From NCBI RefSeq assembly GCF_013315695.1, contig NZ_CP054353.1: a DNA stretch of 64,000 bases; one strand, 5' to 3'. This stretch comes from Escherichia coli (GTDB taxonomy: Bacteria; Pseudomonadota; Gammaproteobacteria; Enterobacterales; Enterobacteriaceae). The translations under genes and the position numbers were made by a program. The notes below the pieces were generated by a model, which ran no database searches, had not been told where the DNA came from, and saw only the letters and a list, made by a program, of their open reading frames with translations. Each line of letters opens with the position of its first letter. Within the stretch, counting starts at the first letter, position 1. Shown here piece after piece: positions 22,925-50,849 of this stretch.

Positions 22925-22973
22925 CGCATCATGGCGGGCACATGCGCCCGCCGGTTAATCAGGAGTCGAACAC

Positions 22974-23783
22974 ATGCTGACACCGGCACAACGATACCTT
23001 CAGCGCACGATGGCGCATCATAGGGCTGATCCATTCAATCGCGAAGAGCAGAGAACACGAACGGCACATGAACAGGTTCTTCACCAGTTACGCCTCGCAC
23101 AGTTGCAGCTGAAGGGCGTGCAGTCAAACATCGCGAAAGCGGAGCTGAAGAAGCACCTGATACCGAATTTTGAAGGCTGGATCGACGGCACACTGGCAGG
23201 CGACAGCGGACGCCAGGACGAAGTCATTACCACCATGATGGTGTGGGCCATTGACTGCCGGGATTATCCGCTGGCGCTGCGTATCGGTGAGTACGTTATT
23301 CGTCACCGGCTGGCACTGCCGGACAACTTCGGGCGCGATGCGGCGACCGTACTCACCGAAGAAATTGCCGAAGTTGTGCTGACAGAAGCCGCCACCAACA
23401 GCGAAACCGACTTATCCGGCTATATCCGTATGCTGGACGAGCTGGATGCACTGGTTCACGACCAGGACATGCCGGATCAGGTCCGTGCAAAACTGCATAA
23501 GGCGCGGGCATTTTCACGACGCGCATCAGGCAGCACGGAAGACCTGACTGTGTCGCTTGGTCTGCTGCGTGAAGCCATGCGCATCAATCCGGCTGCGGGC
23601 GTGAAACGTGAAATCGCCACGCTGGCCAGAAAAGTGTCAAAGGTTCAGCCGGAACAGGAAAAACCGGCAGAAGAGAAAAGTAAATCGAAAGCAACATCAG
23701 GGCGCAAAAAGCCGGCTACAAAAGCGACGGCCAGAAAAGCCACGAAAAAAACCGCCGCAAAAGCGGCGCGTAAGGCGACCTGA
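22974..23783 (+). CDS. terminase small (endonuclease) subunit, P2 gpM-like
   Basis: 269 aa with lysine-rich C-terminus; P2 gene order. Confidence 0.8.
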   Translation: MLTPAQRYLQRTMAHHRADPFNREEQRTRTAHEQVLHQLRLAQLQLKGVQSNIAKAELKKHLIPNFEGWIDGTLAGDSGRQDEVITTMMVWAIDCRDYPLALRIGEYVIRHRLALPDNFGRDAATVLTEEIAEVVLTEAATNSETDLSGYIRMLDELDALVHDQDMPDQVRAKLHKARAFSRRASGSTEDLTVSLGLLREAMRINPAAGVKREIATLARKVSKVQPEQEKPAEEKSKSKATSGRKKPATKATARKATKKTAAKAARKAT

Positions 23784-23891
23784 TAACACCGGACCCGACC
23801 TCGTCGGCAGGCGGCGCGACCGGTGATCTGATCGCTGACTCCCGGTCATTTTCACCAGTCGCCCACCGCCTGATCTACAGGAGAAGACACC

Positions 23892-24386
23892 ATGAGCATG
23901 GTAGCCAGACCCCGTGTGAACGACGCCACGGATGACACGACAGACACCGAAGACGGCGAAGCGCGCATCAGTACAGACGCGTTCTGGCCGGATATCGTGC
24001 TGAAGGAGCTGCGGCTTGCCATGCGTATCCCGGGGCGAACCACAACGTCACGTCTGCTGCATGCCGCCACCGAAGCTGTTGCTCATGTGACGGCAGAGCT
24101 TGACGCCTGGAAGCAGGAACAGGAGGCGGCGGGACGGTCGACACTGGCGGACGTTCCGGCAGCACACATCAACGGTGAGAGCGTGAACGTGCACCGGTAC
24201 CGCCGGGCGGTGTATGCACTGACCCGTGCGGGTGTTCTTGAGCGTTCCCGGGATGTGGACACCACCGACAAAGGTGATCGCCGTGCCGATGCCCTGGACA
24301 TGCAGATTGAAGATATGTGGCGCGATGCGCGATGGGCCATATCGGACATCCGGGGCGTGAAACGGATTTATGCGGAGCTGATTTAA
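23892..24386 (+). CDS. head completion protein, P2 gpL-like
   Basis: 164 aa; P2 gene order. Confidence 0.75.
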   Translation: MSMVARPRVNDATDDTTDTEDGEARISTDAFWPDIVLKELRLAMRIPGRTTTSRLLHAATEAVAHVTAELDAWKQEQEAAGRSTLADVPAAHINGESVNVHRYRRAVYALTRAGVLERSRDVDTTDKGDRRADALDMQIEDMWRDARWAISDIRGVKRIYAELI

Positions 24387-24586
24387 TGAAAGTGATAGCG
24401 CAGGATGGCGACACCGTTGATTTACTCTGCCAGCGTCATTACGGCATGACAAAAGGCGTGACGGAGCGCGTCCTGGCAGCCAATCCGGGGCTGAGCAGCA
24501 CCGTATTTCTGGCGACAGGTCAGGAAGTGGAGCTGCCGGAAATCACACAGGAAAAACAGCGCGAAACCGTTCAGTTGTGGGATTGA
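24386..24586 (+). CDS. tail protein X, P2 gpX-like (LysM-like)
   Basis: 66 aa MKVIAQDGDTVDLLCQRHYG...AANPGL...; coupled to L stop. Confidence 0.8.
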   Translation: MKVIAQDGDTVDLLCQRHYGMTKGVTERVLAANPGLSSTVFLATGQEVELPEITQEKQRETVQLWD

Positions 24587-24588
24587 TT

Positions 24589-24879
24589 ATGTTTCAGAGA
24601 ATTTACGACCACATTACGTTTTTCACATCCGTCATGGTCACCGGTATAGGGGTTATGACGCTGAGCGAGAAGATGGCGCTGGCCGGGCTGATTCTGGGGG
24701 CTCTTTCTCTGCTGCGTGGATGGATGCACAGAACACGTATGGAGCAGGCACAGGAGCGCCGCAACGAGCTTATTGCACGCATAGCCGACCAGATGCAGCA
24801 ACGACCACTAAAAGGCAGCGAGAAACGCGCTCTGGAGGCGCTGAAAGCAGACGGAGATACTCATGGGAAACCAGGTTAA
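24589..24879 (+). CDS. holin (96 aa, two TM segments)
   Basis: Position before the endolysin; TM segments ITFFTSVMVTGIGVM and MALAGLILGALSLL. Confidence 0.7.
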   Translation: MFQRIYDHITFFTSVMVTGIGVMTLSEKMALAGLILGALSLLRGWMHRTRMEQAQERRNELIARIADQMQQRPLKGSEKRALEALKADGDTHGKPG

Positions 24880-25402
24880 ACGTTATACCGTTGCCGCCAT
24901 CGTGGCGCTGGGTTTTTCGCTGGCCCCCGGGGAACTGAGAACCTCACAGGAGGCACAGGAAAAAATAGCCACGTGGGAAGACTGCCGGGCCGTTCCGTAC
25001 AGGGATATCGCCGGGGTGAAAACCGTGGGCTGCGGCTCAACGGGAAACGTGCCCGACCGCCACCACACCCAACAGGAGGTTGCCGGTCGCTGGGTGAATG
25101 ATTTGCGACGGGCAGAGAACTGCATCAATCAGAACTTCAATGGCCGCGACATGCCACAGCGCCACTTCGAGGCAATGACGGATGCCGCCTTTAATCTGGG
25201 GTGCAAAGGTCTGATGTGGTTTAAGGGGCGTGACGGGAGAATGCACAGAACAACCATCTGGAAGTTCGCTCAGGGAAAGAACTGGAACGCAATGTGCGGC
25301 AGGCTGACGGATTTTGTGAACAGCGGCGGACGCTATTCACAGGGGCTGTTTAACCGACGGGACGACTTCCGGAAATGGTGTTCACAGGAGAACAAAACAT
25401 GA
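24863..25402 (+). CDS. SAR endolysin, GH24 lysozyme with N-terminal signal-anchor-release domain
   Basis: N-terminal weakly hydrophobic segment (YTVAAIVALGFSLAPG) then E-x8-D-x5-T catalytic triad (WEDCRAVPYRDIAGVKT). Confidence 0.8.
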   Translation: MGNQVKRYTVAAIVALGFSLAPGELRTSQEAQEKIATWEDCRAVPYRDIAGVKTVGCGSTGNVPDRHHTQQEVAGRWVNDLRRAENCINQNFNGRDMPQRHFEAMTDAAFNLGCKGLMWFKGRDGRMHRTTIWKFAQGKNWNAMCGRLTDFVNSGGRYSQGLFNRRDDFRKWCSQENKT

Positions 25403-25842
25403 GAGTCACCGTCATCATTGTCTGGCTGGTTGTGACGCTTCTGTTATGTGGGCTGGTCGGCTGGGAAGCATACCGCAAGGGGCAGGAAAGTCTGGGGAGA
25501 CAACAAATGATGGATGTCATCGAGGACAACCGGGCCGCCATGCATGAAGTCCGCGAGGCATACAGCGATTTTTCGCGGGTGATTAACATCATCCGGATCC
25601 TGGACCAGCAACGCATCACCGAAGGAGAGCAACGACGTGAAGCTATGCAGAAGGCCGCACAGAATGATGCGTGTGCTGGCGCTCATCCTCCTGGCGCTGT
25701 CACTGAGCGGCTGCAACAGCACATCGCACACGTTGAAAACCAGACTCGTTTACGAGCCGGTGCCGGAAGTACTGACAAGGCAGACGCCGATCCCCTTTCT
25801 GGAGCGACCGGTGACCTGGTACCGGATAACCGAATGGAGTGA
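25399..25842 (+). CDS. i-spanin (Rz/LysB-like, N-terminal TM anchor)
   Basis: MRVTVIIVWLVVTLLLCGLVG TM then coiled-coil-like region; ATGA-coupled to endolysin. Confidence 0.7.
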   Translation: MRVTVIIVWLVVTLLLCGLVGWEAYRKGQESLGRQQMMDVIEDNRAAMHEVREAYSDFSRVINIIRILDQQRITEGEQRREAMQKAAQNDACAGAHPPGAVTERLQQHIAHVENQTRLRAGAGSTDKADADPLSGATGDLVPDNRME

Positions 25843-25948
25843 CCAGTTACTGGCTGCGCTGGATACATGCAACACAGACAAAGCCGCAATAGCCTGGCTG
25901 GACAAGCAGAGGGCAGAACGGGCGCAAGATGCACCCAATCAGGAGTAG
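25664..25948 (+). CDS. o-spanin lipoprotein (Rz1/LysC-like), overlapping the i-spanin in another frame
   Basis: MMRVLALILLALSLSGC with lipobox LSGC; overlapping architecture typical of spanin pairs. Confidence 0.7.
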   Translation: MMRVLALILLALSLSGCNSTSHTLKTRLVYEPVPEVLTRQTPIPFLERPVTWYRITEWSDQLLAALDTCNTDKAAIAWLDKQRAERAQDAPNQE

Positions 25949-25951
25949 ACG

Positions 25952-27889
25952 ATGAGCAAAAAACATTTTGAGTTGATTACCGCCATGAGCCGTACGGAGC
26001 TGGCTGAGAAAGTTAACGAACGTCTGGCGCTGGGCTGGCAGCTTCAGGGCGACGCACAGGTTGCGTCAGAGCCGGGCGTGCCGTGGTATTTGATGCAGGC
26101 CATGACCGGTGATCAGCCCGTCACCGACGAGCCGCAAATTGCTGTGGATGACGAAGGGAACACAATCAACGAACCGGAATACTACTTCGTCATTGCTCTG
26201 GCCGGGCAATCCAACGGCATGGCGTATGGCGAAGGTCTGCCGCTGCCTGAGACATACGATCGCCCCGATCAGCGCATTAAGCAACTGGCACGCCGCAGTA
26301 CTGTCACGCCGGGTGGTGCGTCCTGTAATTACAACGACATTATTCCTGCGGACCACTGCCTGCATGATGTTCAGGATTTGAGTAAGTTTTCACACCCGAA
26401 AGCCAGCGCAGCTCAGTATGGATGCGTGGGGCAGGGATTACATATCGCGAAGAAATTGTTGCCGTTTATTCCGGCGAATGCGGGCATTCTTCTGGTTCCG
26501 TGCTGTCGTGGTGGATCTGCGTTTACTACAGGGGGTGATGGCGCTTTCAGTGAAACAACCGGTGCAACAGAAGCATCGTCTCGTTGGGGGGTCGATAAAC
26601 CGTTATACAAGGATCTACTCACCCGAACAAAAGCCGCACTGAAAACCAACCCTAAAAACATTCTGCTTGCAGTGGTCTGGATGCAGGGCGAGTTTGACTT
26701 AAAACAAACAACGGCATATTCCAACCAGCCAGCGGCGTTTGATGCCATGGTGGCAAAATACCGCTCCGATCTGGCGGGCGTATCAGGTCAGTGCGTTGGT
26801 GGCTCTTCATCATCAGTACCCTGGATTTGTGGTGATACAACTTATTACTGGAAAGAGACATATCCAACCGAGTACGGTGTTGTCTATGGCGCATACAAAA
26901 ACAAGCAGGCTAAAAACATCTTCTTTGTGCCGTTTATGACGGATGAAAACGGTCAGAATGTTGGCACCAACGAGCCAGATGAAGATCCTGATATCACTGA
27001 AATCGACTATTACGGTTCTGGATGGCGCAAAGATAAAACCACATGGACAACGGCAGATCGTAAAACTCACTTTGGCTCATGGGCACGTCGGGGAATTATT
27101 TCAGATCGTCTTGCTACAGCAATAATTGAGCATGCAGGTAAAACGGAAGCACTTGTTTATGGCAGGGTAACGCTCAGTAAAGAGGAAGAGCGCCCGGAAG
27201 AGGAAGATGAACCCATTGTAAAACCCACAGCTGAACAGTCAGTTATACTTTACGACGCTAAAAATGCCTCAGATACCAATTTACAGGCGCTGAACTGGGA
27301 GTTGAAGGATGTCACCCCCTCTCTGATTCAGGAGGGAAGTAATAAGGCGTTGCGTCTTGAGAAAAGCAACAGTGCGAAACCATGGTCATTACTTCATAGT
27401 ATTGCAGCCGAAAAATCAGGACAACTTCTGGAAAAAGGCGGAGAAATTTCCGTTCGCTTCAAAATACCTGAAAACACCTCTCTTGATACAGGAAAAAATA
27501 AGTATGTGTTAGGGCTGTACTGGAAAATAGCGGGATGGCCAGGTGATGGCGGAGAAGGCTATCTGAGTTCTTTTCTTGTTCAGACAGATAAAGCAAACCT
27601 GGATGTTGTTTACCATTACAACAGTAATCAACTGAAAGATATTGGTACATTTGATGAGTTTGATCATGACTGGCATACGCTCGCATTCAGGTTTGAAGGC
27701 GGTAACAGCCTCAGCGTTACACCGGTGCTCGATGGTAAAGATGGTCAGGCGTTTGATCTTGTTAAGTGGACTAATTCAGCTAATGAGGCCAATAAGTTTA
27801 TTTTGACCGATATTACTGGCACAGCTGAAACGTATCCTGTCCTTATTGAGACAATCGAAGTTAAAGCAAACCAGGCAGCAGCGAAATAA
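25952..27889 (+). CDS. sialate O-acetylesterase, NanS-p-like (SGNH/SASA domain with C-terminal lectin-like region)
   Basis: 645 aa; GQSN block (ALAGQSNGMAYGEG); size and domain order match prophage NanS-p esterases as recalled; inserted between lysis and tail genes. Confidence 0.7.
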   Translation: MSKKHFELITAMSRTELAEKVNERLALGWQLQGDAQVASEPGVPWYLMQAMTGDQPVTDEPQIAVDDEGNTINEPEYYFVIALAGQSNGMAYGEGLPLPETYDRPDQRIKQLARRSTVTPGGASCNYNDIIPADHCLHDVQDLSKFSHPKASAAQYGCVGQGLHIAKKLLPFIPANAGILLVPCCRGGSAFTTGGDGAFSETTGATEASSRWGVDKPLYKDLLTRTKAALKTNPKNILLAVVWMQGEFDLKQTTAYSNQPAAFDAMVAKYRSDLAGVSGQCVGGSSSSVPWICGDTTYYWKETYPTEYGVVYGAYKNKQAKNIFFVPFMTDENGQNVGTNEPDEDPDITEIDYYGSGWRKDKTTWTTADRKTHFGSWARRGIISDRLATAIIEHAGKTEALVYGRVTLSKEEERPEEEDEPIVKPTAEQSVILYDAKNASDTNLQALNWELKDVTPSLIQEGSNKALRLEKSNSAKPWSLLHSIAAEKSGQLLEKGGEISVRFKIPENTSLDTGKNKYVLGLYWKIAGWPGDGGEGYLSSFLVQTDKANLDVVYHYNSNQLKDIGTFDEFDHDWHTLAFRFEGGNSLSVTPVLDGKDGQAFDLVKWTNSANEANKFILTDITGTAETYPVLIETIEVKANQAAAK

Positions 27890-27896
27890 TAAAAAA

Positions 27897-27919
27897 CCCC
27901 CTCCGGCATTCGGAGGGGG
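27897..27919. other. strong GC stem-loop (ccccctccg-gcatt-cggaggggg) after the esterase gene
   Basis: 9-bp stem; A-run on the 5' side, so the T-run is on the minus strand. Confidence 0.5.
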
Positions 27920-28189
27920 AGAGAAACTAACCATTAAAAACGAATATCTATAAGCATCTCAATTCTGGCGTTTTACACCATCACACGCAATGCAAAGGAG
28001 CAATGTATGAATTTATTTCAACAGTCCATGTTGTATTTCAGTGCTGCAGTATGCGTCATATGGGTGTGATAAGGCAGACAGAACTTCCGGAACAAAAAAC
28101 AAATAAGGCAGCAGTAAGAAAAGCAGCTGGCGGTACAACTAACCGATCCTGAAATAGCCTGCCATACACAACAAACAGACGGTGTTTTT

Positions 28190-28660
28190 ATGCTGAAAAT
28201 GAACTCATTACGCGAAGCACTGACCAGCAACTGCCGGTGGTGCAAAGCCAATCCGGAAAAATTCACGGTATTCACTGAGTCCGGAGGCATTGAGACCACC
28301 GCAGAAAGACCGTCATTTCTGTATCGCTACAACCTGGTCGTTTTCATCATGGATTTCACGGAAAGCATCGACAACATCATGCTGCCGGTAATGGCGTGGC
28401 TGTACCGCAACCAGCCTGACCTGCTGCTTAATCCGGAGAAGAACAAAAGCATTAAATTTTCGACGGCCATTAACGACGATGACAGCGCCGATATCCTGCT
28501 GGAAATCCCGGTATGGGAACGCGTGATTGTACGCCGCAACGATGACGGCACGGTAACGGCAGAGCATATCGGTGAGCCACCGATAAGCCGGGCACTGGAA
28601 GCATGGCGAGTGGTCTTTGAAGACATGACATGGAAAACCGCAGAAGAGGCCGGGGCATGA
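28190..28660 (+). CDS. tail completion protein, P2 gpR-like
   Basis: 156 aa; MLKMNSLREALT start resembles P2 R; P2 gene order. Confidence 0.8.
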   Translation: MLKMNSLREALTSNCRWCKANPEKFTVFTESGGIETTAERPSFLYRYNLVVFIMDFTESIDNIMLPVMAWLYRNQPDLLLNPEKNKSIKFSTAINDDDSADILLEIPVWERVIVRRNDDGTVTAEHIGEPPISRALEAWRVVFEDMTWKTAEEAGA

Positions 28661-29292
28661 GAGACGCTCACGAACTGGATGCCATCTTTCAGGATATTCT
28701 TTCCGGCCTGTCGGCTGCTGGCATTCAGCGCACAGCAATGAACGTGGGTAAGATTATCCGGCAGCAACAGGCCAGGCGCATCAGAAACCAGGTATCCCCG
28801 GAAGGCCAGCCCTGGGAGAAACGAAAACGCCGCATAATGCGTATACAAAAAGGCGTGAAGTTTATCTGGAAAGACGGACAGGTGAGAAACCTGAAAAACT
28901 GGAGCACATCCCGGGGACGGTTCGGGCAGAAAATTACCGGCTACGATACAGACACCGGGGGTATCCGGACGTTTTACAAAGCGGATATCGAAGATTACCT
29001 GGAAATTAACACTCTGCGTGTTGGCGCGAAAACAACTCGCCCTTCCCCCATGTTTGAAAAGCTGAGAACGCCGCGCTTCATGAAAATAACCCCGGCTCCT
29101 GACGGCGTAAGCGTTGGGTTTCAGGGGCGGGCCGCGCGTATTGCCAGGGTACATCAGTTCGGAGAAGTGAGCCTGGTATCACCCGGGAACGCCACGAAAT
29201 ACCCCGTGCGCGAGCTGCTGGGCCTGAACGGGAAAGACAAACAGCAAATCACAGAAACCGTGATAGCCGGACTGGGGAAAGCGACGAAATGA
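28657..29292 (+). CDS. tail completion protein, P2 gpS-like
   Basis: ATGA-coupled to R; size and order. Confidence 0.75.
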   Translation: MRDAHELDAIFQDILSGLSAAGIQRTAMNVGKIIRQQQARRIRNQVSPEGQPWEKRKRRIMRIQKGVKFIWKDGQVRNLKNWSTSRGRFGQKITGYDTDTGGIRTFYKADIEDYLEINTLRVGAKTTRPSPMFEKLRTPRFMKITPAPDGVSVGFQGRAARIARVHQFGEVSLVSPGNATKYPVRELLGLNGKDKQQITETVIAGLGKATK

Positions 29293-29870
29293 ACATCGAG
29301 CTTATGCGACTGCTGCACAACATTGTCCGCATTGGCGTGGTCACAGAAATCAACACCGACAACTGGGAGGTTCGCGTGCAGAGCGGCGGACTGACCACCA
29401 ACTGGATCAGATGGAACTGCGGGCGGGCCGGAAAATTCAGAATCTGGATCCCGCCATCACCGGGCGAACAGGTGCTTATCCTGTGCCCCGGCGGCAACCC
29501 GGAAACCGCCGTCAGCGCGGGTAGCCTGTACAGTAATGACAACCCACCGCCGGACTCGCTGGAAAACGAAATGGTCATCACCGCACCGGACGGTGCAGTG
29601 TTTCGCTATAACGCACAGGAAAGCGCGCTGACTGCAACAGGCATTAAAACCGCAACCATCACAGCGGAAACCCGCATCACGCTGGACACGCCAAGGGTGG
29701 AATGCACGCAGCACCTGAAGGCAAAAACATTCGAGCTGACCGAAGGCGGGAAGATGACCGGTAACATCACGCACACCGGAGGAAGCCTGACCTCCAACGG
29801 CATCACGGTACACAGCCACGTACACGGCGGAGTCAGAAGCGGCGGAGACACAAGCGGAGGTCCACAGTGA
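29289..29870 (+). CDS. baseplate spike/assembly protein, P2 gpV-like
   Basis: 193 aa; order and coupling. Confidence 0.8.
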   Translation: MNIELMRLLHNIVRIGVVTEINTDNWEVRVQSGGLTTNWIRWNCGRAGKFRIWIPPSPGEQVLILCPGGNPETAVSAGSLYSNDNPPPDSLENEMVITAPDGAVFRYNAQESALTATGIKTATITAETRITLDTPRVECTQHLKAKTFELTEGGKMTGNITHTGGSLTSNGITVHSHVHGGVRSGGDTSGGPQ

Positions 29871-30235
29871 GCATTGACTACACCGGCATGAATCCGCACG
29901 GCACGGGAACAATTTCAGGGCACGAACACCTGAAGAACGCCATCATGGACATCATCATGACACCTGTCGGAACACGCGTCATGAGACGGGACTATGGCAG
30001 CCTGGTTCCCGGACTCATCGACAGCCCGATGAATGATGTAACCCGCCTTCAGTGCATGAGTGCAGCTGTAATAGCAATCAGCCGCTGGGAGCCGCGCGTG
30101 GCCGTGAGCGCCGTTGATGTGGCATGGGATAAACAGGGGCGGGCCATGCTGTCCCTGAACTGCCTGATTGTAAACACCATGGAAAAACTGGAGTTTTCTG
30201 TAGAGATGGGAGGAAAGGCGGATGCCGGCCATTGA
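29867..30235 (+). CDS. baseplate wedge protein, P2 gpW-like (gp25 fold)
   Basis: 122 aa; order and coupling. Confidence 0.8.
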   Translation: MSIDYTGMNPHGTGTISGHEHLKNAIMDIIMTPVGTRVMRRDYGSLVPGLIDSPMNDVTRLQCMSAAVIAISRWEPRVAVSAVDVAWDKQGRAMLSLNCLIVNTMEKLEFSVEMGGKADAGH

Positions 30236-31118
30236 TTTATCTGAACTGCCAAAACCGAACGTTATCGAAACGCTGGATTACGAGGTGATACTGGCAGAAA
30301 CGAAAGCATTCATCACCGGTCTTTACCCGGCAGAAATGCAGGCAGCCGTCACTGCCGCAATGACGCTGGAATCAGAACCCCTGAACATTATTGCCCAGGG
30401 CATGGCTTTTCGTGAGCTCATTATTCGCCAGAGAATCAATGACGCCGCAGGTGCCGTTTTGCTGAGCCATGCGGTATCCACAGACCTGGATCATGTTGCC
30501 GCGAACCTGAACACCATTCGCCTTGTCACCACACCTGCAACAGATACCCGTGACGCCATCATGGAAAGTGATACCGCTCTGCGTCTTCGGGCACAGTCTG
30601 CCTTTGACGGACTGAGTGTTGCCGGACCGGCAGGTGCATATGAGTATTTTGCCCGAAGTGTGAGCGGAAGCATTGCCGATGTAAGGGCGACGAGCCCATC
30701 CCCCGCCCAGGTCACCGTGGCAGTATTGTCCACTGACGGCGACGGCAGAGCTTCCGAAGACTTGATCGAAAAAGTCAGAACCGCACTGAGCGCGGAGGAC
30801 GTCCGCCCGGTGGGAGACCGTCTTACCGTAAAGAGCGCTGAAATCATTAACTACCAAATCAACGCCAGACTCTATTTTTATCCGGGACCGGAATCAGAGC
30901 CGATACTGAATGCGGCAAAAAACAACCTGGAAGCCTGGATCAGGGAGCAAAGAAAGATAGGCCGTGACGTTGCGCTTTCGGCCATCATGGCGGTACTGCA
31001 TGTTCAGGGGGTTCAGCGGGTGGAGCTGATTGAGCCAAAGCAAAACATTACCGTCAGTGATGTGCAGTCAGCCTATTGCACGTCATTCAATGTAAGCACC
31101 GGGGGAACCAATGAATAA
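30222..31118 (+). CDS. baseplate protein, P2 gpJ-like
   Basis: 298 aa; order. Confidence 0.82.
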   Translation: MPAIDLSELPKPNVIETLDYEVILAETKAFITGLYPAEMQAAVTAAMTLESEPLNIIAQGMAFRELIIRQRINDAAGAVLLSHAVSTDLDHVAANLNTIRLVTTPATDTRDAIMESDTALRLRAQSAFDGLSVAGPAGAYEYFARSVSGSIADVRATSPSPAQVTVAVLSTDGDGRASEDLIEKVRTALSAEDVRPVGDRLTVKSAEIINYQINARLYFYPGPESEPILNAAKNNLEAWIREQRKIGRDVALSAIMAVLHVQGVQRVELIEPKQNITVSDVQSAYCTSFNVSTGGTNE

Positions 31119-31644
31119 GACATCATTGCTGCCCCCTTCCGCCACAGAATTCATACGCAAAGCAGAGCGTGGCGGTGAACGGTTAATGGCGCTGCCCGTC
31201 GGTATTCGCCATCTCTGGGATCCTGACTCATGCCCCGTGCAGCTGCTGCCTTATCTGGCATGGGCGTTGTCGGTTGACAGATGGGATCAGAACTGGCCGG
31301 AGGAAACCAAGCGGCAGGTCATTCGCGATTCATGGGATATTCACCGGCATAAAGGCACCATCAAAGCCATTCGCCGGGTTGTTGAGCCGTTTGGTTATGT
31401 GATCAGGGTAACCGAATGGTGGGAAACCAACGAAACACCAGGAACATTCCGGCTGGATATCGGCGTACTGGATATCGGGATCACCGAAGAGATGTACAGG
31501 GAAGTCGAACGCCTGGTGGCCGACGCGCGCCCGGTCAGTCGCCACCTGATCGGCCTGAACATCATTCAGGACGTACCGGGTTACATGTACACCGGCGGCA
31601 TCGCCTACGACGGCGACATCATTACAATTTATCCGGCAGAGTAG
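31111..31644 (+). CDS. baseplate protein, P2 gpI-like
   Basis: 177 aa; order. Confidence 0.8.
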   Translation: MNKTSLLPPSATEFIRKAERGGERLMALPVGIRHLWDPDSCPVQLLPYLAWALSVDRWDQNWPEETKRQVIRDSWDIHRHKGTIKAIRRVVEPFGYVIRVTEWWETNETPGTFRLDIGVLDIGITEEMYREVERLVADARPVSRHLIGLNIIQDVPGYMYTGGIAYDGDIITIYPAE

Positions 31645-31650
31645 AGCACT

Positions 31651-34632
31651 ATGAGCGTGAAATTTAAAACTGTGATCACTAAAAGCGGCGCAGCAAAAAT
31701 CGCCGCAGCGACCAGCGCATCAGGAAAAAAAGTCAACATCACGCACATGGCCGTTGGTGATGGTGACGGTAATTTACCTACCCCCTCCTCATCCCAGAAA
31801 AAACTTATTCGTGAGGTCTGGCGCGGCACACCAAATAAGGTCGTTCAGGACAGCAAAAAACCAAACCAGATTATTGCTGAGCTGGTCATCCCTCCTGATG
31901 CCGGTGGATTCTGGATGCGTGAAATTGGGTTGTTTGATGACTCGGGAACGCTGATCGCTGTTGCCAATATGGCCGAAAGCTACAAACCGCTGCTGTCTGA
32001 AGGTTCCGGCAGGGCGATGACATGCCGCATGGTTATTGTCATCAGCGATGTAAGCGCGGTGAAGGTGTCTGTGGACACCACGACGATTATGGCAACCCAG
32101 GATTACGTTGATGATAAAATCGCTGAGCATGAGCAGTCGCGCCGACATCCCGATGCCACCCTGACCCAGAAAGGCTTCACCCAACTGGACAGCTCGGTAA
32201 ACAGTAGCAGTGAGGCGAAAGCTGCAACACCAAAAGCAGTAAAAACACTGAACGATACAAAGGCCCCGCTGAACAGCCCTAAGCTGACCGGAACACCGAC
32301 TGCCCCCACGGCAGCAAAAGGGGTCAACAACACCCAGATAGCGACAACCGCTTACGTGATGGCAGCAATCGCTAATTTAGTGGACTCATCACCGGACGCC
32401 CTGAATACGCTGAACGAGCTGGCGCAGGCGCTGGGAGATGACCCAAACTTTTCTGCCACCATGACAAAGGCACTGGCCGGAAAGCAACCCCTTGACGCCA
32501 CGCTGACAGCAATAGCAGCACTGGCTACAGCAGCTGATAAACTGCCTTACTTCACCGGAAGCGACAAGGCAGCACTGACAGCGCTGACGAAAGTTGGCCG
32601 GGACATTCTCGGGAAGGCATCCGTCAGTGAGGTCATTACATACCTGGGCCTCACTAACACCATCACGCAGGCATCGGGCGCACTTCAGAAAGCACAGAAC
32701 GGTAAAGACATCCCGAATAAAGCAACTTTTCTGACGAACATTGGCGTTACCAGCCAGACATTCATGAAGCACAACGGAGAACTGCCCGAAGATGCGGACC
32801 TGAATACCTATGGCCCGGTTGCGGCAACACTGGGAACATGGGGAAAAGCCTCATCAACCAATGCAACGATCGCTAAAAATTTCCCGGAAGAGAGCGCTGT
32901 GGGGATACTGGAAGTCCTTACTGGCGGATCATTTAACGGAACGCAAAGGTACACCTGCCGCAGCGGGAATATTTATGTTCGGACCCTGACCGCCAGATGG
33001 AACGGTACAAACGGACCATGGGGAGTGTGGCGAAACGTACAGATGGCGACCAGGCCACTTAGCACAACCATTGATCTGAATACCCTGGGGAATGCAGGTG
33101 ATATCGGCATATGGAGGAACAGTAACGCCAGTATTGCTTCATTCACCAGAAACTACCCCGAAGAAGGCAATAATGCCCAGGGGATTCTCGAGCTTATGGA
33201 AGGGGGTGCGTATGGGCGAACCCAGCGCTACACGACCATTCTCGGGAACGTGTATATTCGCACCCTTACAACAACATGGGACGCGTCCGCGCCGAAATGG
33301 GGAGGGTGGCACAGAGTCGGACATCAGTCTGACGGGGCATATCGTGATGATGACCTGAACACCATGAAAACGCCGGGCATTTACAGTGTGACCAACAAGG
33401 CAAAAAACGGCCCCATGAAGAGCGGAAATGAAAATTTGCTGGGGATCCTTGAAGTCATAAGGCGACTGGATGGCAGAACCTTTGTGCAGCGTTACACCAC
33501 AGCCGGAACGGCGACACTGACCCGGGGGCGATCTTTTGAAAGAACCTTCAGCGGTGACGCCTGGACAGAATGGCGGGAAATCTATAACTCATTCAGTCTT
33601 GCCCAGAGTCTGGGGATGGGTCGTGCGGTAGCAAGACTATCCAGCCTGGACTGGCAGACCTACGACTTTGTACCTGGCAGTTTGATCACCGTTCGGCTGG
33701 ATGACATGACCAACATTCCTGACAGCATGGACTGGGGGGTTATCGATGGCAACATAATAAATATTGCCGTTGGCCCGAGTGAGGATTCAGGTTCTGGCAG
33801 GTCAGTAATGGTATGGCGCGGTACAGTAAGTAAAGCGAACTACCGTTTCTTTATGGCACGAATTGCCGGGAATCCGGGAAATCGCACGATCACAACAAGA
33901 CGAGTACCAATTATTGATGAAGCCCAGACGTGGGGGGCAAAACAGATATTCAGTTCTGGCCTTTCAGGTGAGTTATCCGGCAACGCATCAACTGCAACAA
34001 AACTTAAAACCGCTCGCAAGATTAACGGCGTTGCGTTTGATGGTTCGGCAAATATTGAAGCGTTTCCCCCCGGCGTTCCACTGCCGTGGCCATCAGATAC
34101 ACCACCTGCTGGCTATGCCATTATGCAGGGGCAAACCTTCGACAAGGCAAAATACCCGAAACTTGCCATTGCCTACCCGTCAGGAAAGCTTCCTGATATG
34201 CGGGGATGGACAATCAAGGGGAAACCCGCCAGCGGTCGGGCGGTATTATCGCAGGAGCAGGACGGTATTAAATCGCATACCCATACGGCCAGCGTGTCAA
34301 AGACCGATCTGGGTTCGAAAACGACCAGTTCATTTAATTATGGAACCAAAACAACCAGCACAGGCGGGAGACACGAGCATGATGTTCCGCTCAAGTATCA
34401 GAACGGTGGCGGTGTAAACTTTGACTGGCTGGACGGAGCATCAAACAGTGGTGTTATTGCATACGGTAAAGTACCTGCCGCCGGTGAACACACCCACACC
34501 GTGGCAATCGGGGAGCACACTCATACCGTCCCATTGGGATCACACGGGCACGGCGTGACCGTTAACGCCACAGGCAACACGGAAAACACCGTGAAAAACA
34601 TTGCGTTTAACTACATCGTGAGGCTTGCATAA
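31651..34632 (+). CDS. tail fiber protein, P2 gpH-like N-terminus with long divergent C-terminal domain
   Basis: 993 aa; N-terminus [23 protein letters not shown] resembles P2 H; C-terminal HxH repeats ([24 protein letters not shown]). Confidence 0.85.
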
Positions 34633-35378
34633 TGACCTTTACAATGGAAGACGAAGCCAGAATGCTTCACGTATTTCATATTCACCCGGAAACCAGCGAA
34701 CTGACTGGAGAAAGCGACGTATATATCCCACCGTATACCGGGTTGCCCGCAGGCTGTACGACGACCGAGCCGCCACATATCCCGGAAGGGTTCGTGGCGC
34801 TTTTTGATGACGTGCGCCAGCGCTGGGAGCTTGCAGAAGATCACCGGGGAAAAGTGGTGTGGAATACGGCATCCGGGGATGAGATCGCAATTACGGAAAT
34901 CGGACCGCTACCTGAAAATACAACAACGGCAGCCCCGTCAACAGCCGCAGACAAGTTTATTGATGGCGAGTGGAGAGAAGATCGCAGTCTGGCAATCAGC
35001 ATAAAAAATAACGAGATAAACGAATGGCGAAGCACCATGGAAGCCGCGAATTACGTTTTCACGTTCAATGGTCGTAGCTGGGATTACGGAAAAGAAACCC
35101 AGTCCCGGCTGGATCCATCAGTGACAGCCGCAAAGTCCGGGTTATTACCGGAGGGATTTTTCTGGACGGATGCCGATAACAACGATATCCCGGTTACCGC
35201 AGATGAATTGATCGCACTGAGCAATGCTGCATCTGCTGCAATGTTTACCAAGGGAATGGAAATACATATCCGGCAACGGGAAATGAAAAAAGCCATAGAG
35301 GAATTACAGGACCCCGGCGAAATCATGGCATACCCGGTGGGATGGAAAACAGATACCGGAGACGGTGCCGGTGAGTGA
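34632..35378 (+). CDS. tail fiber assembly chaperone (gpG/Tfa-like)
   Basis: 248 aa directly after and overlapping the fiber gene. Confidence 0.7.
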   Translation: MTFTMEDEARMLHVFHIHPETSELTGESDVYIPPYTGLPAGCTTTEPPHIPEGFVALFDDVRQRWELAEDHRGKVVWNTASGDEIAITEIGPLPENTTTAAPSTAADKFIDGEWREDRSLAISIKNNEINEWRSTMEAANYVFTFNGRSWDYGKETQSRLDPSVTAAKSGLLPEGFFWTDADNNDIPVTADELIALSNAASAAMFTKGMEIHIRQREMKKAIEELQDPGEIMAYPVGWKTDTGDGAGE

Positions 35379-35383
35379 AAGTT

Positions 35384-35408
35384 AAAACGCCCGACTGACG
35401 GGCGTTTT
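35384..35408. terminator. bidirectional terminator between convergent G and U (aaaacgcccg-actgac-gggcgtttt)
   Basis: Perfect 6-bp GC stem flanked by A-run and T-run. Confidence 0.7.
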
Positions 35409-35410
35409 AA

Positions 35411-35887
35411 TTATCTTACCAGCGCCAGCGCAGAACTGATGCCGGACTTAATATTATTTGTCAGATCTCCCAGAGATGAAGACTGAAGACGTTCGCGGAG
35501 ATCTTCATTCACACGCTGAAAGGTCACCGTAAACTCAATCTTCCGCGCCTTGCCATAGCGATCAAGCTCTGAACGCGTGGTATTCAGAGCGGTAATAACG
35601 TACATACCGTAAATCTGCCCGACACCATCAATCAGCGGCCATGGACGTCCAGCATACGCCTGAGTTGTCAGCGCGGTAAGTGAGACTTCACCGCCTGTAA
35701 TTTCCGGGTAGAGAAGACCGGAAAGCGTGATGGTATCGTCACCCGCGCCGATATACTGCCAGCTGGCCGAGCGATTGATTCGCTCATTCTTCACGTGGCG
35801 CCAGTTACGGGACTGCTGTATTTGTTGGTGTGGCAGCGTGCTTAACTGAAAAACAAACATGCCGTAAATCATCATCATAATCACCAC
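35411..35887 (-). CDS. tail protein, P2 gpU-like
   Basis: About 155 aa; last gene of the FI-FII-E-T-U order; exact start among several Met codons unresolved. Confidence 0.75.
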   Translation of the reverse strand: MVIMMMIYGMFVFQLSTLPHQQIQQSRNWRHVKNERINRSASWQYIGAGDDTITLSGLLYPEITGGEVSLTALTTQAYAGRPWPLIDGVGQIYGMYVITALNTTRSELDRYGKARKIEFTVTFQRVNEDLRERLQSSSLGDLTNNIKSGISSALALVR

Positions 35888-35889
35888 TC

Positions 35890-38748
35890 CTAATCACGAT
35901 CGCGGAAGCTGTTCATCCCGGCGGATTGTCTGCGAATTTCTTCCCGTACAGCCTCCCCCACCATTCTGGCAAGGTCGCGCGGGTTCTGCGTCGCCACGTT
36001 GTGAAGATGAACGTGGATTTCCCCACCGAACACAGACGACGGTTCAGGAGAGCGCGAAGCCTCCCGGGTAGCCGGGGAGACTGGCGCCCACTGCTTAACC
36101 TCCACGGAACGGGAAGCATCCCGGGAGACCTCCGGAGGCACAGGCGAAACCGGAGGCATAACCGGTAGTCCTGGCGCAACAGTCGGCTCATTCCACTGCC
36201 CGCGAACAGCCAGCGCACGGGGGAGGTTTTTAAACACGATATCGCCGGGACCGATACGCTTGCGGGCTTCATGAAGCATGCCCGACGTATTACCCTCGAT
36301 ACCTTTAAGCCTGCGAAGAACGGCGCTGTTACCGCTGGTTATGCCGGGGGGATTGCTGGTTTTACCGTCATTCTGTGGATTACCATTCCCGTTGTTATTA
36401 TTGCTGACAGGAGCGGCCGGAGTGGGTACCCAGGACTTCTGAACCATTTTTTTCTGAACAGGGTCCCACTCCCACATAACCGGAGCCTTTGCAACTGCCT
36501 CAGCACGATTTTTCGCCCGCTCAACTTCAGAAGGGAGCACGCCGAGTTTTTCCAGCACCCATGCCAGGCCGTCCATCAACGCCTGAAGAGGAGTAAGCGC
36601 AAGCGATATCGCCCCGCTGAGCACGCGACCAAAAGTTTCCCCGACCGAGGCACACCGTTCAAGAGATTCATGGCTGGTCTGAACAGGTGTGAGTAACCGC
36701 CTGAACCAGTCATACACCGTGGACACCGCACCCGATACCAGATCAAACAGCGGCGCAAACTGAGCAACACCTTCACGAACAGGCGCAAGGCCAGCCCACA
36801 GCGCCCGGAATGTTCCGAGCATAAAAGCCTTAACCTGTTCCCAGTGACGCCATATGAGCAGCGCTCCACCGGCAAGGGCAGCAACCACGAGACCAACAGG
36901 ACTGAGAAGACCGGCAAGCGCCCCGCCCAGCACTGAAACCGCACCGGATACCATCCCCCACAGTGCCGGAAGGCCAGACAGGCGAAGGGCAAGACCACCA
37001 ACGCCAGTTGCAACAGAGGAAAACCCGCCACCAAGAAGCGCAGAGCCAAGCTGAAGTTTTGCAAAAATACCGGTCAGCACCCCGGAGGTCAGGGACAACG
37101 CCCCAAGGGCTGTCGTGGCCGCAAGAACACCACCGGCAACAATCGCCAGAGTACGCACCAGTTGCGGATTATCCTGAACCCATCCTCTGAGCCGTTCACC
37201 CCATGATACCGCTACCTGAACAAGTTCGCGGAGGTCATCGGTGACAAGGGCAACGACATCACTGCGTATACCGGAGAAGACACCAGACAGGCGATCGGCA
37301 TCACCGCCAAGGTTATCCCGCAGAACATCACCCATACGCCGGGCGGTTCCCTGCACCTGCCCCATACGGTCAGACACCGTTGCCAGCGAGCGGAGAAAAT
37401 CCGGGATCTGATCAACGGCCAGATCTTCGATGGGTGTGCCGAACAGCGCTATCGCCGCATTGGCTCGTTCCGCAGGATCCTGAATCTTCAGCAGCCCGGC
37501 AGCCGTTCGCTGCATTGCCTCGCGAGCAGCCGCGCCTCCGCTGGCAATCGCTGACAACATTTTTTCCGCATTAAGGCCAATCAGCCCATAAGCCTCAACG
37601 CTTGCTTTGGACATATCCGAGCCACGAATACTGAATTCCTTGACGGCATCGCCGGTTTTATCCAGGGCGAATTTCCCCTGCTGCGCCATGCTGACAAGCA
37701 GCGTCATGGTTTCAGAGCCGGAGAGCCCCATATTGCGGAAATGCGTGGAATACTCATGCAGAATTTCAGGAAGTTCGCCGCGCATTTCGGCGGACATTTT
37801 CTGCATGCCTGCCGCCATCAGGTCCACGGCCTCACCTGCATTTGCAGCGAGACCGTTTTTCAGCATGATGCCGGCCGCCTGAACCTGTTCAGCCACATTA
37901 CCGCCGGTGACCTGAGCAAGATCGATTGCCTGCCGTGTCACCCTCTCTAGTTCTTCAGTCCCTACAGTACCCAGTGCGCCAAGCGTGCTTTGCGCCGCAG
38001 CTGCCGCTTCGGAAATCATCGCGATATCCGTAGCCGCACCTGACGCACGGATGTTCTGAATCATACGGCTGTAGCGCTGGCCGTCTTCTGCGCTGCCTCC
38101 ACTCTGTGCCGCAATGAGCGCACCCTGCCGTTGCTCTTCAACAACAGGTGCAACCGCACGTCCGGCGGCGTACAGACCAGCACTGCCCGCTGCCATGGCA
38201 AGCGCACCGCGCTGGCTGAGTTTACCGGCGATATCCTGAACACGATCGTAACGTTGTTGTGCCTGCGTGACGCGCGCAAGCTGAGCCTGCTGGCGCTCAA
38301 GCTGATCGTTGTATTCCTGCGTTCGCCTGATTGCTTCTTCAGTGGTGCGGTTACTTCCGTCCGCCCGTATACCGTGAGACTCCAGCTCACGACCGGCTTC
38401 CCGTAGCCGGGACTGGTGAAGGGCGTAAACGGTATTAAGACGCTCAATCTTTGCAGTCAGTGAGCGGATAGCTTCCTGCTGTTTTTCCGTCAGTGTCGTG
38501 CCAGTACGCTGGACCTCCAGGAGGCGCTGAAGTCGCCCACGCGCCTCGTTCAGGCTGTTTTCAGTCGAGGCAACCTGCTGACGGGCACGGGAAAACGCAT
38601 CACTGCTTCGCTGGAGTGACTTAAGAGCGTTCTGCGTGGAGGAAAGAGATTCGGAAAGCGCGCCGGTCATTTCCCGGGCGCGCCTGACGGGTTGGGTGAG
38701 ACGGTCGACCGCAGTGAGGGCTACACGTATCTGGAGATTATTACTCAT
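35890..38748 (-). CDS. tail tape measure protein, P2 gpT-like
   Basis: 952 aa from ATG (MSNNLQIRV); Ala/Gly-rich helical protein; ORF-track frame extends to 38802. Confidence 0.85.
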   Translation of the reverse strand: MSNNLQIRVALTAVDRLTQPVRRAREMTGALSESLSSTQNALKSLQRSSDAFSRARQQVASTENSLNEARGRLQRLLEVQRTGTTLTEKQQEAIRSLTAKIERLNTVYALHQSRLREAGRELESHGIRADGSNRTTEEAIRRTQEYNDQLERQQAQLARVTQAQQRYDRVQDIAGKLSQRGALAMAAGSAGLYAAGRAVAPVVEEQRQGALIAAQSGGSAEDGQRYSRMIQNIRASGAATDIAMISEAAAAAQSTLGALGTVGTEELERVTRQAIDLAQVTGGNVAEQVQAAGIMLKNGLAANAGEAVDLMAAGMQKMSAEMRGELPEILHEYSTHFRNMGLSGSETMTLLVSMAQQGKFALDKTGDAVKEFSIRGSDMSKASVEAYGLIGLNAEKMLSAIASGGAAAREAMQRTAAGLLKIQDPAERANAAIALFGTPIEDLAVDQIPDFLRSLATVSDRMGQVQGTARRMGDVLRDNLGGDADRLSGVFSGIRSDVVALVTDDLRELVQVAVSWGERLRGWVQDNPQLVRTLAIVAGGVLAATTALGALSLTSGVLTGIFAKLQLGSALLGGGFSSVATGVGGLALRLSGLPALWGMVSGAVSVLGGALAGLLSPVGLVVAALAGGALLIWRHWEQVKAFMLGTFRALWAGLAPVREGVAQFAPLFDLVSGAVSTVYDWFRRLLTPVQTSHESLERCASVGETFGRVLSGAISLALTPLQALMDGLAWVLEKLGVLPSEVERAKNRAEAVAKAPVMWEWDPVQKKMVQKSWVPTPAAPVSNNNNGNGNPQNDGKTSNPPGITSGNSAVLRRLKGIEGNTSGMLHEARKRIGPGDIVFKNLPRALAVRGQWNEPTVAPGLPVMPPVSPVPPEVSRDASRSVEVKQWAPVSPATREASRSPEPSSVFGGEIHVHLHNVATQNPRDLARMVGEAVREEIRRQSAGMNSFRDRD

Positions 38749-46700: not shown

Positions 46701-49700
46701 TTAGTCAAACGGCGGTGGGGCCAGCACTTCACGATTACCGTTGTGCCCCTGTTCGCTGACAATCCCCTGCGCTTCCATCTGTTCGATAATACGCGCTGCA
46801 CGGTTATAACCAATGCGGAACTGACGCTGTACGCCAGAAATTGATGCTTTGCGTTTTTCAGTGACAAACTGCACCGCCTGATCGAACAACGGATCCAGTT
46901 CTTCAGCGCCATCGAAACCGCCCGCGCCACCTTCGCTTTCACTGTCGGAGGTGATGCCATCAACATACTGTGGGCGGCCACGCGCTTTCCAGTCCTGCAC
47001 CACGGCATGAACTTCCTGATCGCGAACAAAAGCACCATGAACACGTACCGGCAACGTGGAGTTCGGCCCAGAGTAAAGCATATCCCCCATACCCAGCAGT
47101 GATTCCGCGCCAGCCTGATCAAGAATGGTACGTGAGTCAATCTTACTGGATACGGTAAAGGCGATACGGGTCGGAATATTCGCTTTAATCAGACCAGTAA
47201 TAACATCAACCGATGGACGCTGCGTTGCCAGTACGAGGTGGATACCCGCGGCACGGGCTTTTTGCGCCAGACGTGCTATCAGCTCTTCCACTTTTTTACC
47301 TACCGTCATCATCAGGTCGGCAAATTCGTCCACCAACACCACAATGTACGGTTCTTTTTTCAGCACCGGATGCTGGGCATCCATACTGTCACCCGGCTTC
47401 CAGTACGGGTCTGGAATCGGACGCATCATCCTATCGGCTTCAGCAATTTTTTCGTTATAACCCGCCAGATTACGCACACCCAGCGCAGACATCAGTTTAT
47501 AACGACGCTCCATCTCGTTAACACACCAGCGCAGCGCGTTGGCGGCATCTTTCATATCAGTAACGACTTCCGTTAACAGATGCGGAATGCCTTCATAAAC
47601 CGAAAGCTCCAGCATTTTCGGGTCGATCATGATGAAACGAACATCTTCTGGCTGTGCTTTATAAAGCATGCTCAGGATCATCGCGTTCACACCGACAGAC
47701 TTACCGGAACCGGTAGTCCCCGCAACCAACAAGTGCGGCATTTTTGCCAGATCGGCAACCACCGGCTCACCGGCGATATCTTTACCCAGCACCACGGTTA
47801 ATGGCGACGGATTATCGCGGAATTTGGCGTTATCCAAAACTTCGCGCAGATAAACGGTTTGTCGTTTTTTATTCGGTAACTCCAGACCTACATAGGGTTT
47901 GCCAGGAATAACTTCAACGACACGCACCGCCACCGTCGAAAGTGAACGGGCAAGGTCCCGTGACAAGTTAGAAATGCGCGCCGCTTTTACGCCAGGTGCC
48001 AGGTTAAGTTCAAAGCGAGTGATAACTGGCCCCGGAGAGTAATTGACGACATCGGCTTTAATACGGAAATCAGCCAGACGCGCTTCCACCAGACGCGCCA
48101 TTTGTTCAAGCGCAAAGGTATCTACCGGCTCCACTTCGCTCGGCGGAGGTGTCAACAAATCCAGAGAAGGCAGCGGCGTCGTCGGTTTATGCAACGGACG
48201 GCTGTCGCCATTACGCATCAACAGCGGATGAAGCAGGGTATCCTGCGGCTGTGGCGCAACTGGCTGTTGTGGCTGCTGATACTGCGGCTGCGGCGCAACT
48301 GGCTGTTGTGGCTGCTGATATTGCTGCTGCGGCGCAACCGGTTGTTGTGGCTGCTGATACTGCGGCTGCGGCGCAACTGGCTGTTGCGGCTGCTGATATT
48401 GCGGCTGTGGTGCAACCGGCTGTTGCGGCTGCTGATATTGCTGCTGCGGTGCAACCGGCTGTTGCGGCTGCTGATATTGCTGCTGCGGTGCAACCGGCTG
48501 TTGCGGCTGCTGATACTGCGGCTGCGGCGCAACTGGTTGCTGCGGCTGCTGATACTGTTGCTGCGGTGCAATCGGTTGTTGCGGCTGCTGTACAGGTTCA
48601 ACAATTGGCGTAAACAGCGGTTCGTGTGGACCATCATCCAGCAATGCTTTCATTGGCGAAAATTCAAAATCATCCAGAGTGAACGGATTCGCCCCAGCCG
48701 GTTGTTCGCCGGAATAACGTTGTTGTTGAGTTTGAGCAAACTGACGAGCCAGTTCAGCCTCTGCCGCAGCATCTGCATCTTCTGCGTTCACGGGCACATC
48801 ATGTTGATACTGTTCGCCGTAGCGTTGCTGCTGTGTCTGGGCGAATTGACGCGCCAGTTCATCCTGCTGCATCGCATCGATTTCATCATCGTTATACTGA
48901 TCGCCAGAATCATACTGATTGCGCTGGGCTTCACGGGCTTTTTCTTCTGCCGCACGCTGTGAGGGCAGCTTAATACCGTAAGACGCCAGTTCACGACGAG
49001 TTGGCACGCGGATGCGTTTCGGTCGTGGCAACTGGGGGCCAATCCCCTCTTTGACCTGTGGACGCGGTCCACCGCTATTTGCCAGACTGAAGACTGGCGC
49101 GGCAACGGTTGCGGCAGCCCCCGTCGCCAGTGTCGCTTTTTTCACGCCAGATGCCAGCGGAGAAACGGCGGCAGCGGCTTCCACTGGAGGTACTGCTGCA
49201 ACAGAAGGTGCTTTTAGCGAAGATTTGATCGGTTCTGGTTCTTTAACAGGTTCTGGAATCGGTTGATACCAGGCCGCAAGTTGTTCACGTTCACGGGCAC
49301 GCTTCTCTTCCACTTCTTCAAAATAGTAAAGCGGCGGACGCGCGGGTTTTGTCTCTTCTACAACGGGTTCAGGCTCCACAACAGGCTGCTGTTCAACGGG
49401 TTGCGGCTGTTGGTACAACGGCTCCTGAGCGGCTGGCTGCTGATAAGTTTGCTCCGTCTGGTATGTAGACTGTGGAGCAAAAGTGGATTGCTGCTCTTCG
49501 GCTTGCCAGGCGTTACCTGCCACCGATTGTTCTGGCGCAGGGGCGTAATACGGCTGTTGCGCAGACTGTTCCGGCGCAGGAGCGTAGTAAGGTTGTTGCG
49601 CAGATTGTTCAGCTGCAGGTGCATAATACGGCTGCTGTGGCTGTACTGGTTGTTGCAGCGGCTCATTATATTGCACTGCAGGCTGCGCATATTGTGGCTG

Positions 49701-50849
49701 CTGTGGGTAACCTTCCGGTGCAGGAGCAATAACCGGCTCTCCCGTTTGTGGCCCCGGTACAGGCTGCCAGGCTACTGTAGGTTGTGCAGGTGGAACATCA
49801 ACAGAGGCAACAGGCGGCGTCTGAGTCACAGGTTCAACCGGCGCAGCCCAGCTTTGTGTCGCCGTGGTAGCAGCAGCTGCTACAGCAACAGGTTCGGTAA
49901 TTGGCGCACCGTTTAATAATGGATCGTACTCGTCATATTCTGGCTGCGTTGCACGATTGCCCGAAAAGAGGACGTCGTCAGGGTCGGCAGCCACACCGCG
50001 TGCAGTGTAGGTAATCTCTTCGTCATCATCCATCCGCTTACCGGAGAACAACGCAGCGTCTGTTTGCCGCCCCATCGGATTAATGAATTTTTCCGCCAAC
50101 CGTTTACGACGCGCTAGCGCGCCGCGAAGAATACGGGCACGGCGTGATTCATGCTGTTTGCCGTGACTTTCATCTTCTTCATATTCTTCGTCGTCTTCAT
50201 ACTCATCTTCATCGACCCAGGTATCATCGCGACGGGTACGATTACTGGCGAAGGTAAGAATATTTAAAATCCAGCCGCCGAGTTTTTCAGCAATGGTCAC
50301 CCATGACCAACCGGTGAACAGCGTCAGGCCCGCTGCCCAAACGCAGAGCAGTGCAATAGTTCCCCCGCTACTGTGTAGCAGTGGTTGTAGCGTAGTGCTC
50401 AGTAAGCTGCCAATGACGCCACCGGAGGCAAAATACCAGATATCGTCAGCGTTGATTGCCGCCAGACCACAGGAGGTAAGGATGAGCGCCAAAACGCCAA
50501 TGATGCGTAGCGAAACGGCAAAATAATCAATGTATTCGTCGCTGGACTGATGACGCCAGGCAAACCAACAACCGCCGACAATAATGACGGGAATGGTGTA
50601 AGCCATCACGCCAAAAATAAAGAACAGCGTATCTGCCAGCCATGCACCGGGCATCCCACCTAAATTATGGATAGGTTCATGCCAGGCCGTTTGCGACCAG
50701 CTGGGGTCCGAAGGGTTAAAGCTTAGTAAGGCAGCCATCAACCAGACGGCAAACAGGACAATAAGGATCAGCAACGCCTCCAGAAGGCGGCGGCCGCTAC
50801 TTAACTTTGTCAATGTGACTTCTTTGTCTTCAGTGTATTCCTGGCTCAA
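46701..50849 (-). CDS. ftsK: DNA translocase FtsK
   Basis: 1382 aa; N-terminal membrane domain, Pro/Gln-rich linker, C-terminal motor with Walker A. Confidence 0.95.
48235..48600. repeat. in-frame tandem 33-bp repeats in the FtsK linker ([13 protein letters not shown] units, about 10 copies)
   Basis: Repeated CAGCCGCAACAGCCGGTTGCACC units visible in DNA and protein; locus is about 50 codons longer than the K-12 length I recall. Confidence 0.8.

Follow-up and report, generated by a model that had tools for sequence, protein, structure and literature searches.

The generic MLVA scheme for E. coli is reportedly that of Lindstedt et al. 2007, and one of its loci, CVN001, has been in routine typing use ever since. 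CVN001 has a 39-bp unit, its offset is 250 bp, and its primers are published (PMC8143711); the scheme, with CVN001 included, was also used in two other studies (PMC5217547 and PMC3407997). A counterpart has been described in another species: STTR7/SENTR2 of Salmonella is a 39-bp VNTR in ftsK with 9.3 copies in S. Enteritidis, although its orthology with CVN001 at the level of the unit rests on the literature. The Salmonella repeat has been placed in a "variable PQ repeat region", where in-frame multi-unit deletions are reported. Swapping in an ftsK allele that lacks 2 of 9 units left egg-white survival unchanged. This swap is the only functional test that we found, and it covers that single phenotype.

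Two further classes of repeats serve as points of reference. The 45-bp VNTR of tolA (SENTR1/SE-10) is likewise a typing marker within coding sequence; its unit length is divisible by three, and the protein stays functional when the array grows or shrinks. It stands for a group of minisatellites that lie in frame in those parts of envelope proteins that are extended or disordered; this group differs from the array described here by gene and by peptide motif. Classical contingency loci, as in Haemophilus, Neisseria and Campylobacter, have units of 1-8 bp that change the reading frame or promoter spacing; switching is frequent, and the genes concerned encode surface or restriction-modification functions. 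As for FtsK itself, the literature describes its linker as a long and unstructured segment whose size varies from one bacterium to another and which normal activity requires, with an exact function that is unclear and still poorly defined.

We analysed a stretch of E. coli DNA of 64,000 nucleotides (the window), in which ftsK carries a tandem array of the same period, hereafter the PQ array.

46701..50849, minus strand: ftsK CDS, DNA translocase FtsK, 1382 aa, TTG start (from the ORF list and a RefSeq match)
48243..48584, minus strand: 39-bp in-frame tandem array, VNTR locus CVN001 (from Tandem Repeats Finder, unit coordinates and lag-39 identity)

The gene (4149 nt) is base-for-base the same as the RefSeq ftsK of E. 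coli AF3 (NZ_OZ547117.1; protein WP_016234723.1), a blood-culture strain from the UK. Its neighbours are the usual ones: lrp upstream; lolA, rarA and serS downstream. Four Pfam domains, FtsK_4TM (aa 20-191), FtsK_alpha (893-993), FtsK_SpoIIIE (1001-1214) and gamma (1317-1377), all exceed their curated cut-offs, which gives the full FtsK architecture of 4TM, alpha, motor and gamma. An earlier note on this DNA, made from the sequence alone, had put the array in the FtsK linker. The domain map bears this out, as the array sits between FtsK_4TM and FtsK_alpha, in the linker without any Pfam domain that runs from the end of 4TM at aa 191 to the start of alpha at aa 893. It is the last linker segment before the motor: the crystallised E. 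coli FtsK motor construct, PDB 2IUS, aligns to residues 871-1382 of the window protein and begins one residue past the array region.

The array consists of eight full units of 39 nt and a partial unit of 30 nt (10 aa), together encoding FtsK residues 756-869, and the unit peptide is PQQPVAPQ(P/Q)QYQQ, 13 aa long. Tandem Repeats Finder places it at 48243-48590 with a period of 39, 8.9 copies, 90% matches, a score of 507 and zero indels, and the spacing between all copies is 39 nt. The array is real and far beyond chance, since its self-identity at lag 39 reaches 0.909, while the window as a whole gives 0.267 +/- 0.049 and no other site in it exceeds 0.46. Of the "about ten in-frame 33-bp repeats" that had been noted earlier, the in-frame array and the 13-residue motif were right, while the unit is 39 bp and the count is eight plus a partial. 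The 13-residue motif as it was then written already implies 39 bp.

The published CVN001 primers each have one unique match in the window, with 0 expected by chance.

48685..48703, minus strand: CVN001 forward primer site (AACCGGCTGGGGCGAATCC), exact match
48142..48161, plus strand: CVN001 reverse primer site (GGCGGCGGTGTCAGCAAATC), 2 mismatches in this lineage

The reverse-primer site in this lineage reads GGCGGAGGTGTCAACAAATC. An in-silico product of 562 bp results from the window, so that (562-250)/39 = 8.00, which is allele 8; the 445 bp of K-12 give 5.00. Because the published primers flank the array and the allele comes out as the whole number 8.00, we identify the PQ array with CVN001. 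The 39-bp unit, the flanking primers, the allele range and the frequencies all agree with the same locus, and there is no essential difference from it: the window carries a minority allele. Very probably, then, the PQ array is the known 39-bp minisatellite CVN001, whose units are gained and lost whole and alter length only, and which reached allele 8 through one duplication. The PQ repeat of ftsK is thus already known; it is an ordinary VNTR of little biological weight.

CVN001 sizes are non-integer in strain 317 (4.77), IHE3034 (5.38) and O157:H16 (4.38). The alleles of these three contain short units of 15 bp that encode PQYQQ and are internal in-frame deletions. Non-integer alleles need rounding, and the 15-bp units and reverse-primer mismatches can both affect fragment-based typing; mismatches in primer sites could also weaken MLVA amplification. 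Strain 317 has one mismatch in the reverse-primer site, and MSHS133 one under the forward primer.

Array length was surveyed by BLAST in 5,426 complete E. coli genomes, using the two 350-bp flanks only as query and taking the span as length. Matches covering at least 80% of the query were obtained in all but one genome: there were 5,431 matches, and one genome was matchless. Eight of the 5,431 lie on records labelled plasmid. A query that included the array was set aside: 8 of its 60 rows were partly aligned, and four lengths fell off whole-unit steps from the window. The flank-only query gave clean spans in all 60 rows. Frequencies come from a systematic sample of 60 records along the BLAST ranking of the 5,426 genomes.

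Allele 3: 1/60 genomes
Allele about 3.8: 1/60 genomes
Allele 5: 24/60 genomes
Allele 5.38: 2/60 genomes
Allele 6: 26/60 genomes
Allele 7: 1/60 genomes
Allele 8: 5/60 genomes, the source genome counted in

This distribution resembles that of a Swedish MLVA study, where CVN001 alleles 4, 5, 6, 7 and 8 accounted for 1%, 40%, 40%, 13% and 5%, respectively. All sampled K-12 derivatives have allele 5 and all sampled O157:H7 have allele 6; nearly all ST131 isolates typed elsewhere also have CVN001 allele 6. In the genomes examined, arrays measure 147-420 nt and alleles range from about 3 to 10; among the fetched genes, the shortest protein has 1316 aa, with 3 full units, and the longest 1407 aa, with 10. 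The window allele is therefore long but inside the normal range, and the array is strain-variable, as had been proposed.

Relative to K-12 (strain MC4100), whose ftsK has 3990 nt and encodes 1329 aa, the window protein is 53 aa longer. Protein alignment divides this excess into 39 aa from three PQ units, 13 aa from a second array and one Glu.

49521..49637, minus strand: second, separate 39-bp in-frame linker array, three units of QQPYYAPA(A/P)EQS(A/V) (from Tandem Repeats Finder and protein alignment)
50166..50189, minus strand: acidic run EEYEEDES with one extra Glu codon and an N-to-S change (from protein alignment)

Tandem Repeats Finder reports the second array at 49528-49634 with a period of 39 and 2.7 copies. 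Three units are present in the window, two in K-12 and O157:H7, and four in O121:H19, 23S01245-7 and O157:H16; the motif of this VNTR is QQPYYAPA(A/P)EQ(P/S)(A/V). The extra Glu codon and the N-to-S change of the acidic run are not present in the ten other alleles aligned. Differences in FtsK length between strains (1316-1407 aa here) are thus three separate in-frame polymorphisms, not one. The PQ array had been credited with making FtsK about 50 aa longer than in K-12: the total was close, at 53 aa, but only 39 aa come from the PQ array.

Comparison with close relatives narrows down what is particular to the window. The 60 genomes nearest by flanks resemble SMS-3-5 and include it; this strain probably belongs to phylogroup F. 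Their spans fall into two classes: 1029 bp (allele 7) in 56 genomes and 1068 bp (allele 8) in the other four. When units are lettered by type, SMS-3-5 reads A B C D E F G H and the window A B C C D E F G H.

48429..48506, minus strand: two identical adjacent type C units, 48429-48467 and 48468-48506 (from the unit strings)

Over the whole of ftsK, 11 substitutions and one 39-bp indel separate the window from SMS-3-5; two substitutions and the same 39-bp indel, unit C, separate it from MS 21-1. These strings point to one exact duplication of unit C, starting from allele 7, as the sole array event specific to the window lineage; most of the length by which the array exceeds that of K-12 goes back to older divergence between lineages. 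A large lineage-specific expansion was also considered and rejected, as a single unit is specific to the lineage. The earlier note had called the array expanded, and alignment with alleles of other strains, the check that it proposed, did find a repeat number different from the reference: allele 8 against allele 5 of K-12. Against its nearest relatives, though, the window has gained one unit.

Other alleles record comparable events. The array of E1624, the longest allele (1407 aa), reads I J K L a / I J K L a / j and is an exact tandem duplication of five units, 195 bp, of a K-12-like array. That of O121:H19 reads OPOPQRSTU, with the O P block doubled at its start. It equals the window array in length with a different unit order, which indicates that the same length arose independently.

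We propose the following course for these changes. Slippage in replication, or unequal recombination between near-identical units, would add or remove whole units. As 39 nt make up 13 codons, gain or loss of units never shifts the frame, and all unit lengths seen, 39, 30 and 15 nt, are multiples of three. Each unit contributes 13 residues to the unstructured tether between the membrane domain, anchored at the septum, and the motor that pumps DNA, so that whole-unit gain or loss keeps the reading frame and alters the length of the tether only. A broad range of tether lengths is apparently tolerated, and we infer that such changes are nearly neutral.

One body of evidence does not sit easily with near-neutrality. 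In 14 alleles, that of the window included, 36 distinct 39-nt units encode only eight peptides. Ten of the 16 variable unit sites are at third codon positions, and silent changes are enriched among the units (Fisher p = 2.7e-4 for all changes, p = 5e-4 for transitions only). The main amino-acid polymorphism of the unit is an exchange of P and Q, via CCG and CAG, at unit codon 9. Since units are not independent samples, the silent-site bias amounts to a hint that the unit peptide may be under constraint. Given such constraint, copy number too could matter, which counts against near-neutrality. Carried further, PQQPVAPQ(P/Q)QYQQ might be, instead of an inert spacer, a conserved multivalent motif beside the motor, for instance for binding or self-association, with copy numbers of 3-10 tuning FtsK activity between lineages. 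We regard this extrapolation from the unit sequences as distinctly unlikely; if true, the motif would affect hexamer assembly or reach at the septum.

Selection might also act on tether length as such, each lineage having the length that best suits either the motor's reach at the septum or some multivalent interaction in which the PQ units take part. Several observations are in keeping with this: the unit peptide is conserved while codons drift (36 types, eight peptides, p = 5e-4 or below), array length stays constant inside a lineage, FtsK requires its linker for normal activity and the PQ array directly adjoins the motor. We nevertheless hold selective tuning of length to be very unlikely. 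Natural arrays span a roughly threefold range, 147-420 nt, in healthy isolates, and alleles 5 and 6 occur side by side, one about as frequent as the other. In Salmonella, the swap that removed 2 of 9 units was without phenotype in one assay, and a low mutation rate alone would equally give stability within lineages.

The earlier note had called the array contingency-like. Taken literally, a contingency-type locus would be a hypermutable repeat whose frequent copy changes create adaptive heterogeneity of FtsK within a population. The PQ array does share with classical contingency loci its tandem repeats and a copy number that probably changes by slippage. Copy number varies among lineages, from about 3 to 10, and changes recur, as seen from arrays of the same length with different internal structure (ABCCDEFGH against OPOPQRSTU). 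It differs from them in its 39-bp in-frame unit, its stability in clones and its location in an essential division gene, and we consider a contingency function extremely unlikely. A unit of 13 codons cannot switch the gene off, and we found no on/off switching by copy number among the fetched genes: all 15 (1316-1407 aa) are annotated as intact, and each of the 14 distinct alleles reads through in translation. Nor did the assembly comparison reveal hypermutability among close relatives: a single span recurs in 56 of the 60 nearest genomes, although these come from diverse hosts and countries, and the other four share one duplication, which fits a single event. Copy number is stable within clones: the sampled K-12 derivatives and the sampled O157:H7 are each uniform in length, and the ST131 isolates typed are nearly so. 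Finally, ftsK is an essential housekeeping division gene, neither a surface nor a host-interaction gene. The label of contingency-like does not survive these comparisons.

Short-read assemblies commonly collapse or expand repeat arrays, but mis-assembly as the source of the extra unit can practically be dismissed, as the span recurs in four separate complete-genome assemblies (AF3, MSB1_4I, OZ546911 and OZ546925), modern reads are long compared with an array of 342 nt, and the independently assembled MSB1_4I, from another country (Australia), has an ftsK identical to that of the window over all 4149 bp, which argues against assembly error.

Long open reading frames in other frames overlap the PQ array.

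48102..48962, plus strand: spurious antisense ORF, 286 aa, Leu/Arg-rich, low complexity (from the ORF list; frame without stop in the array)
48149..48613, plus strand: spurious antisense ORF, 154 aa, Ala-rich, low complexity (from the ORF list; open frame)
48218..48637, minus strand: spurious same-strand ORF in an alternative frame, 139 aa, Ser/Arg/Asn-rich (from the ORF list)

Stop codons are absent across the array in five of six frames, and long ORFs arise in other frames because the composition of the unit leaves these frames without stops. Over the array, RefSeq annotates ftsK only, with no CDS for the 286-, 154- or 139-aa ORFs. The long antisense ORFs had already been judged spurious, and the five stop-free frames together with the RefSeq annotation agree with that judgement. 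We considered a real antisense gene and rejected it: five of six frames are open from composition alone, the products are of low complexity and nothing is annotated. Gene finders should disregard long other-frame ORFs across the PQ array.

Several features elsewhere in the window were recorded in passing. A P2-family prophage abuts pflA (window 1-20951) and comprises tail, baseplate, lysis, capsid, terminase, portal, replication endonuclease, Cox and integrase genes; between its portal and replication genes lies a DUF7380 gene (13113-14945), possibly cargo. A cluster annotated as bcsC-bcsB-bcsA (21927-34164) is located between pflA and ycaM, beside GGDEF and EAL genes. It is decayed: IS1A (26860-27557) splits bcsB, and bcsA has an internal stop. 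The neighbouring ycaM (APC family permease, 35264-36683) is annotated as frameshifted.
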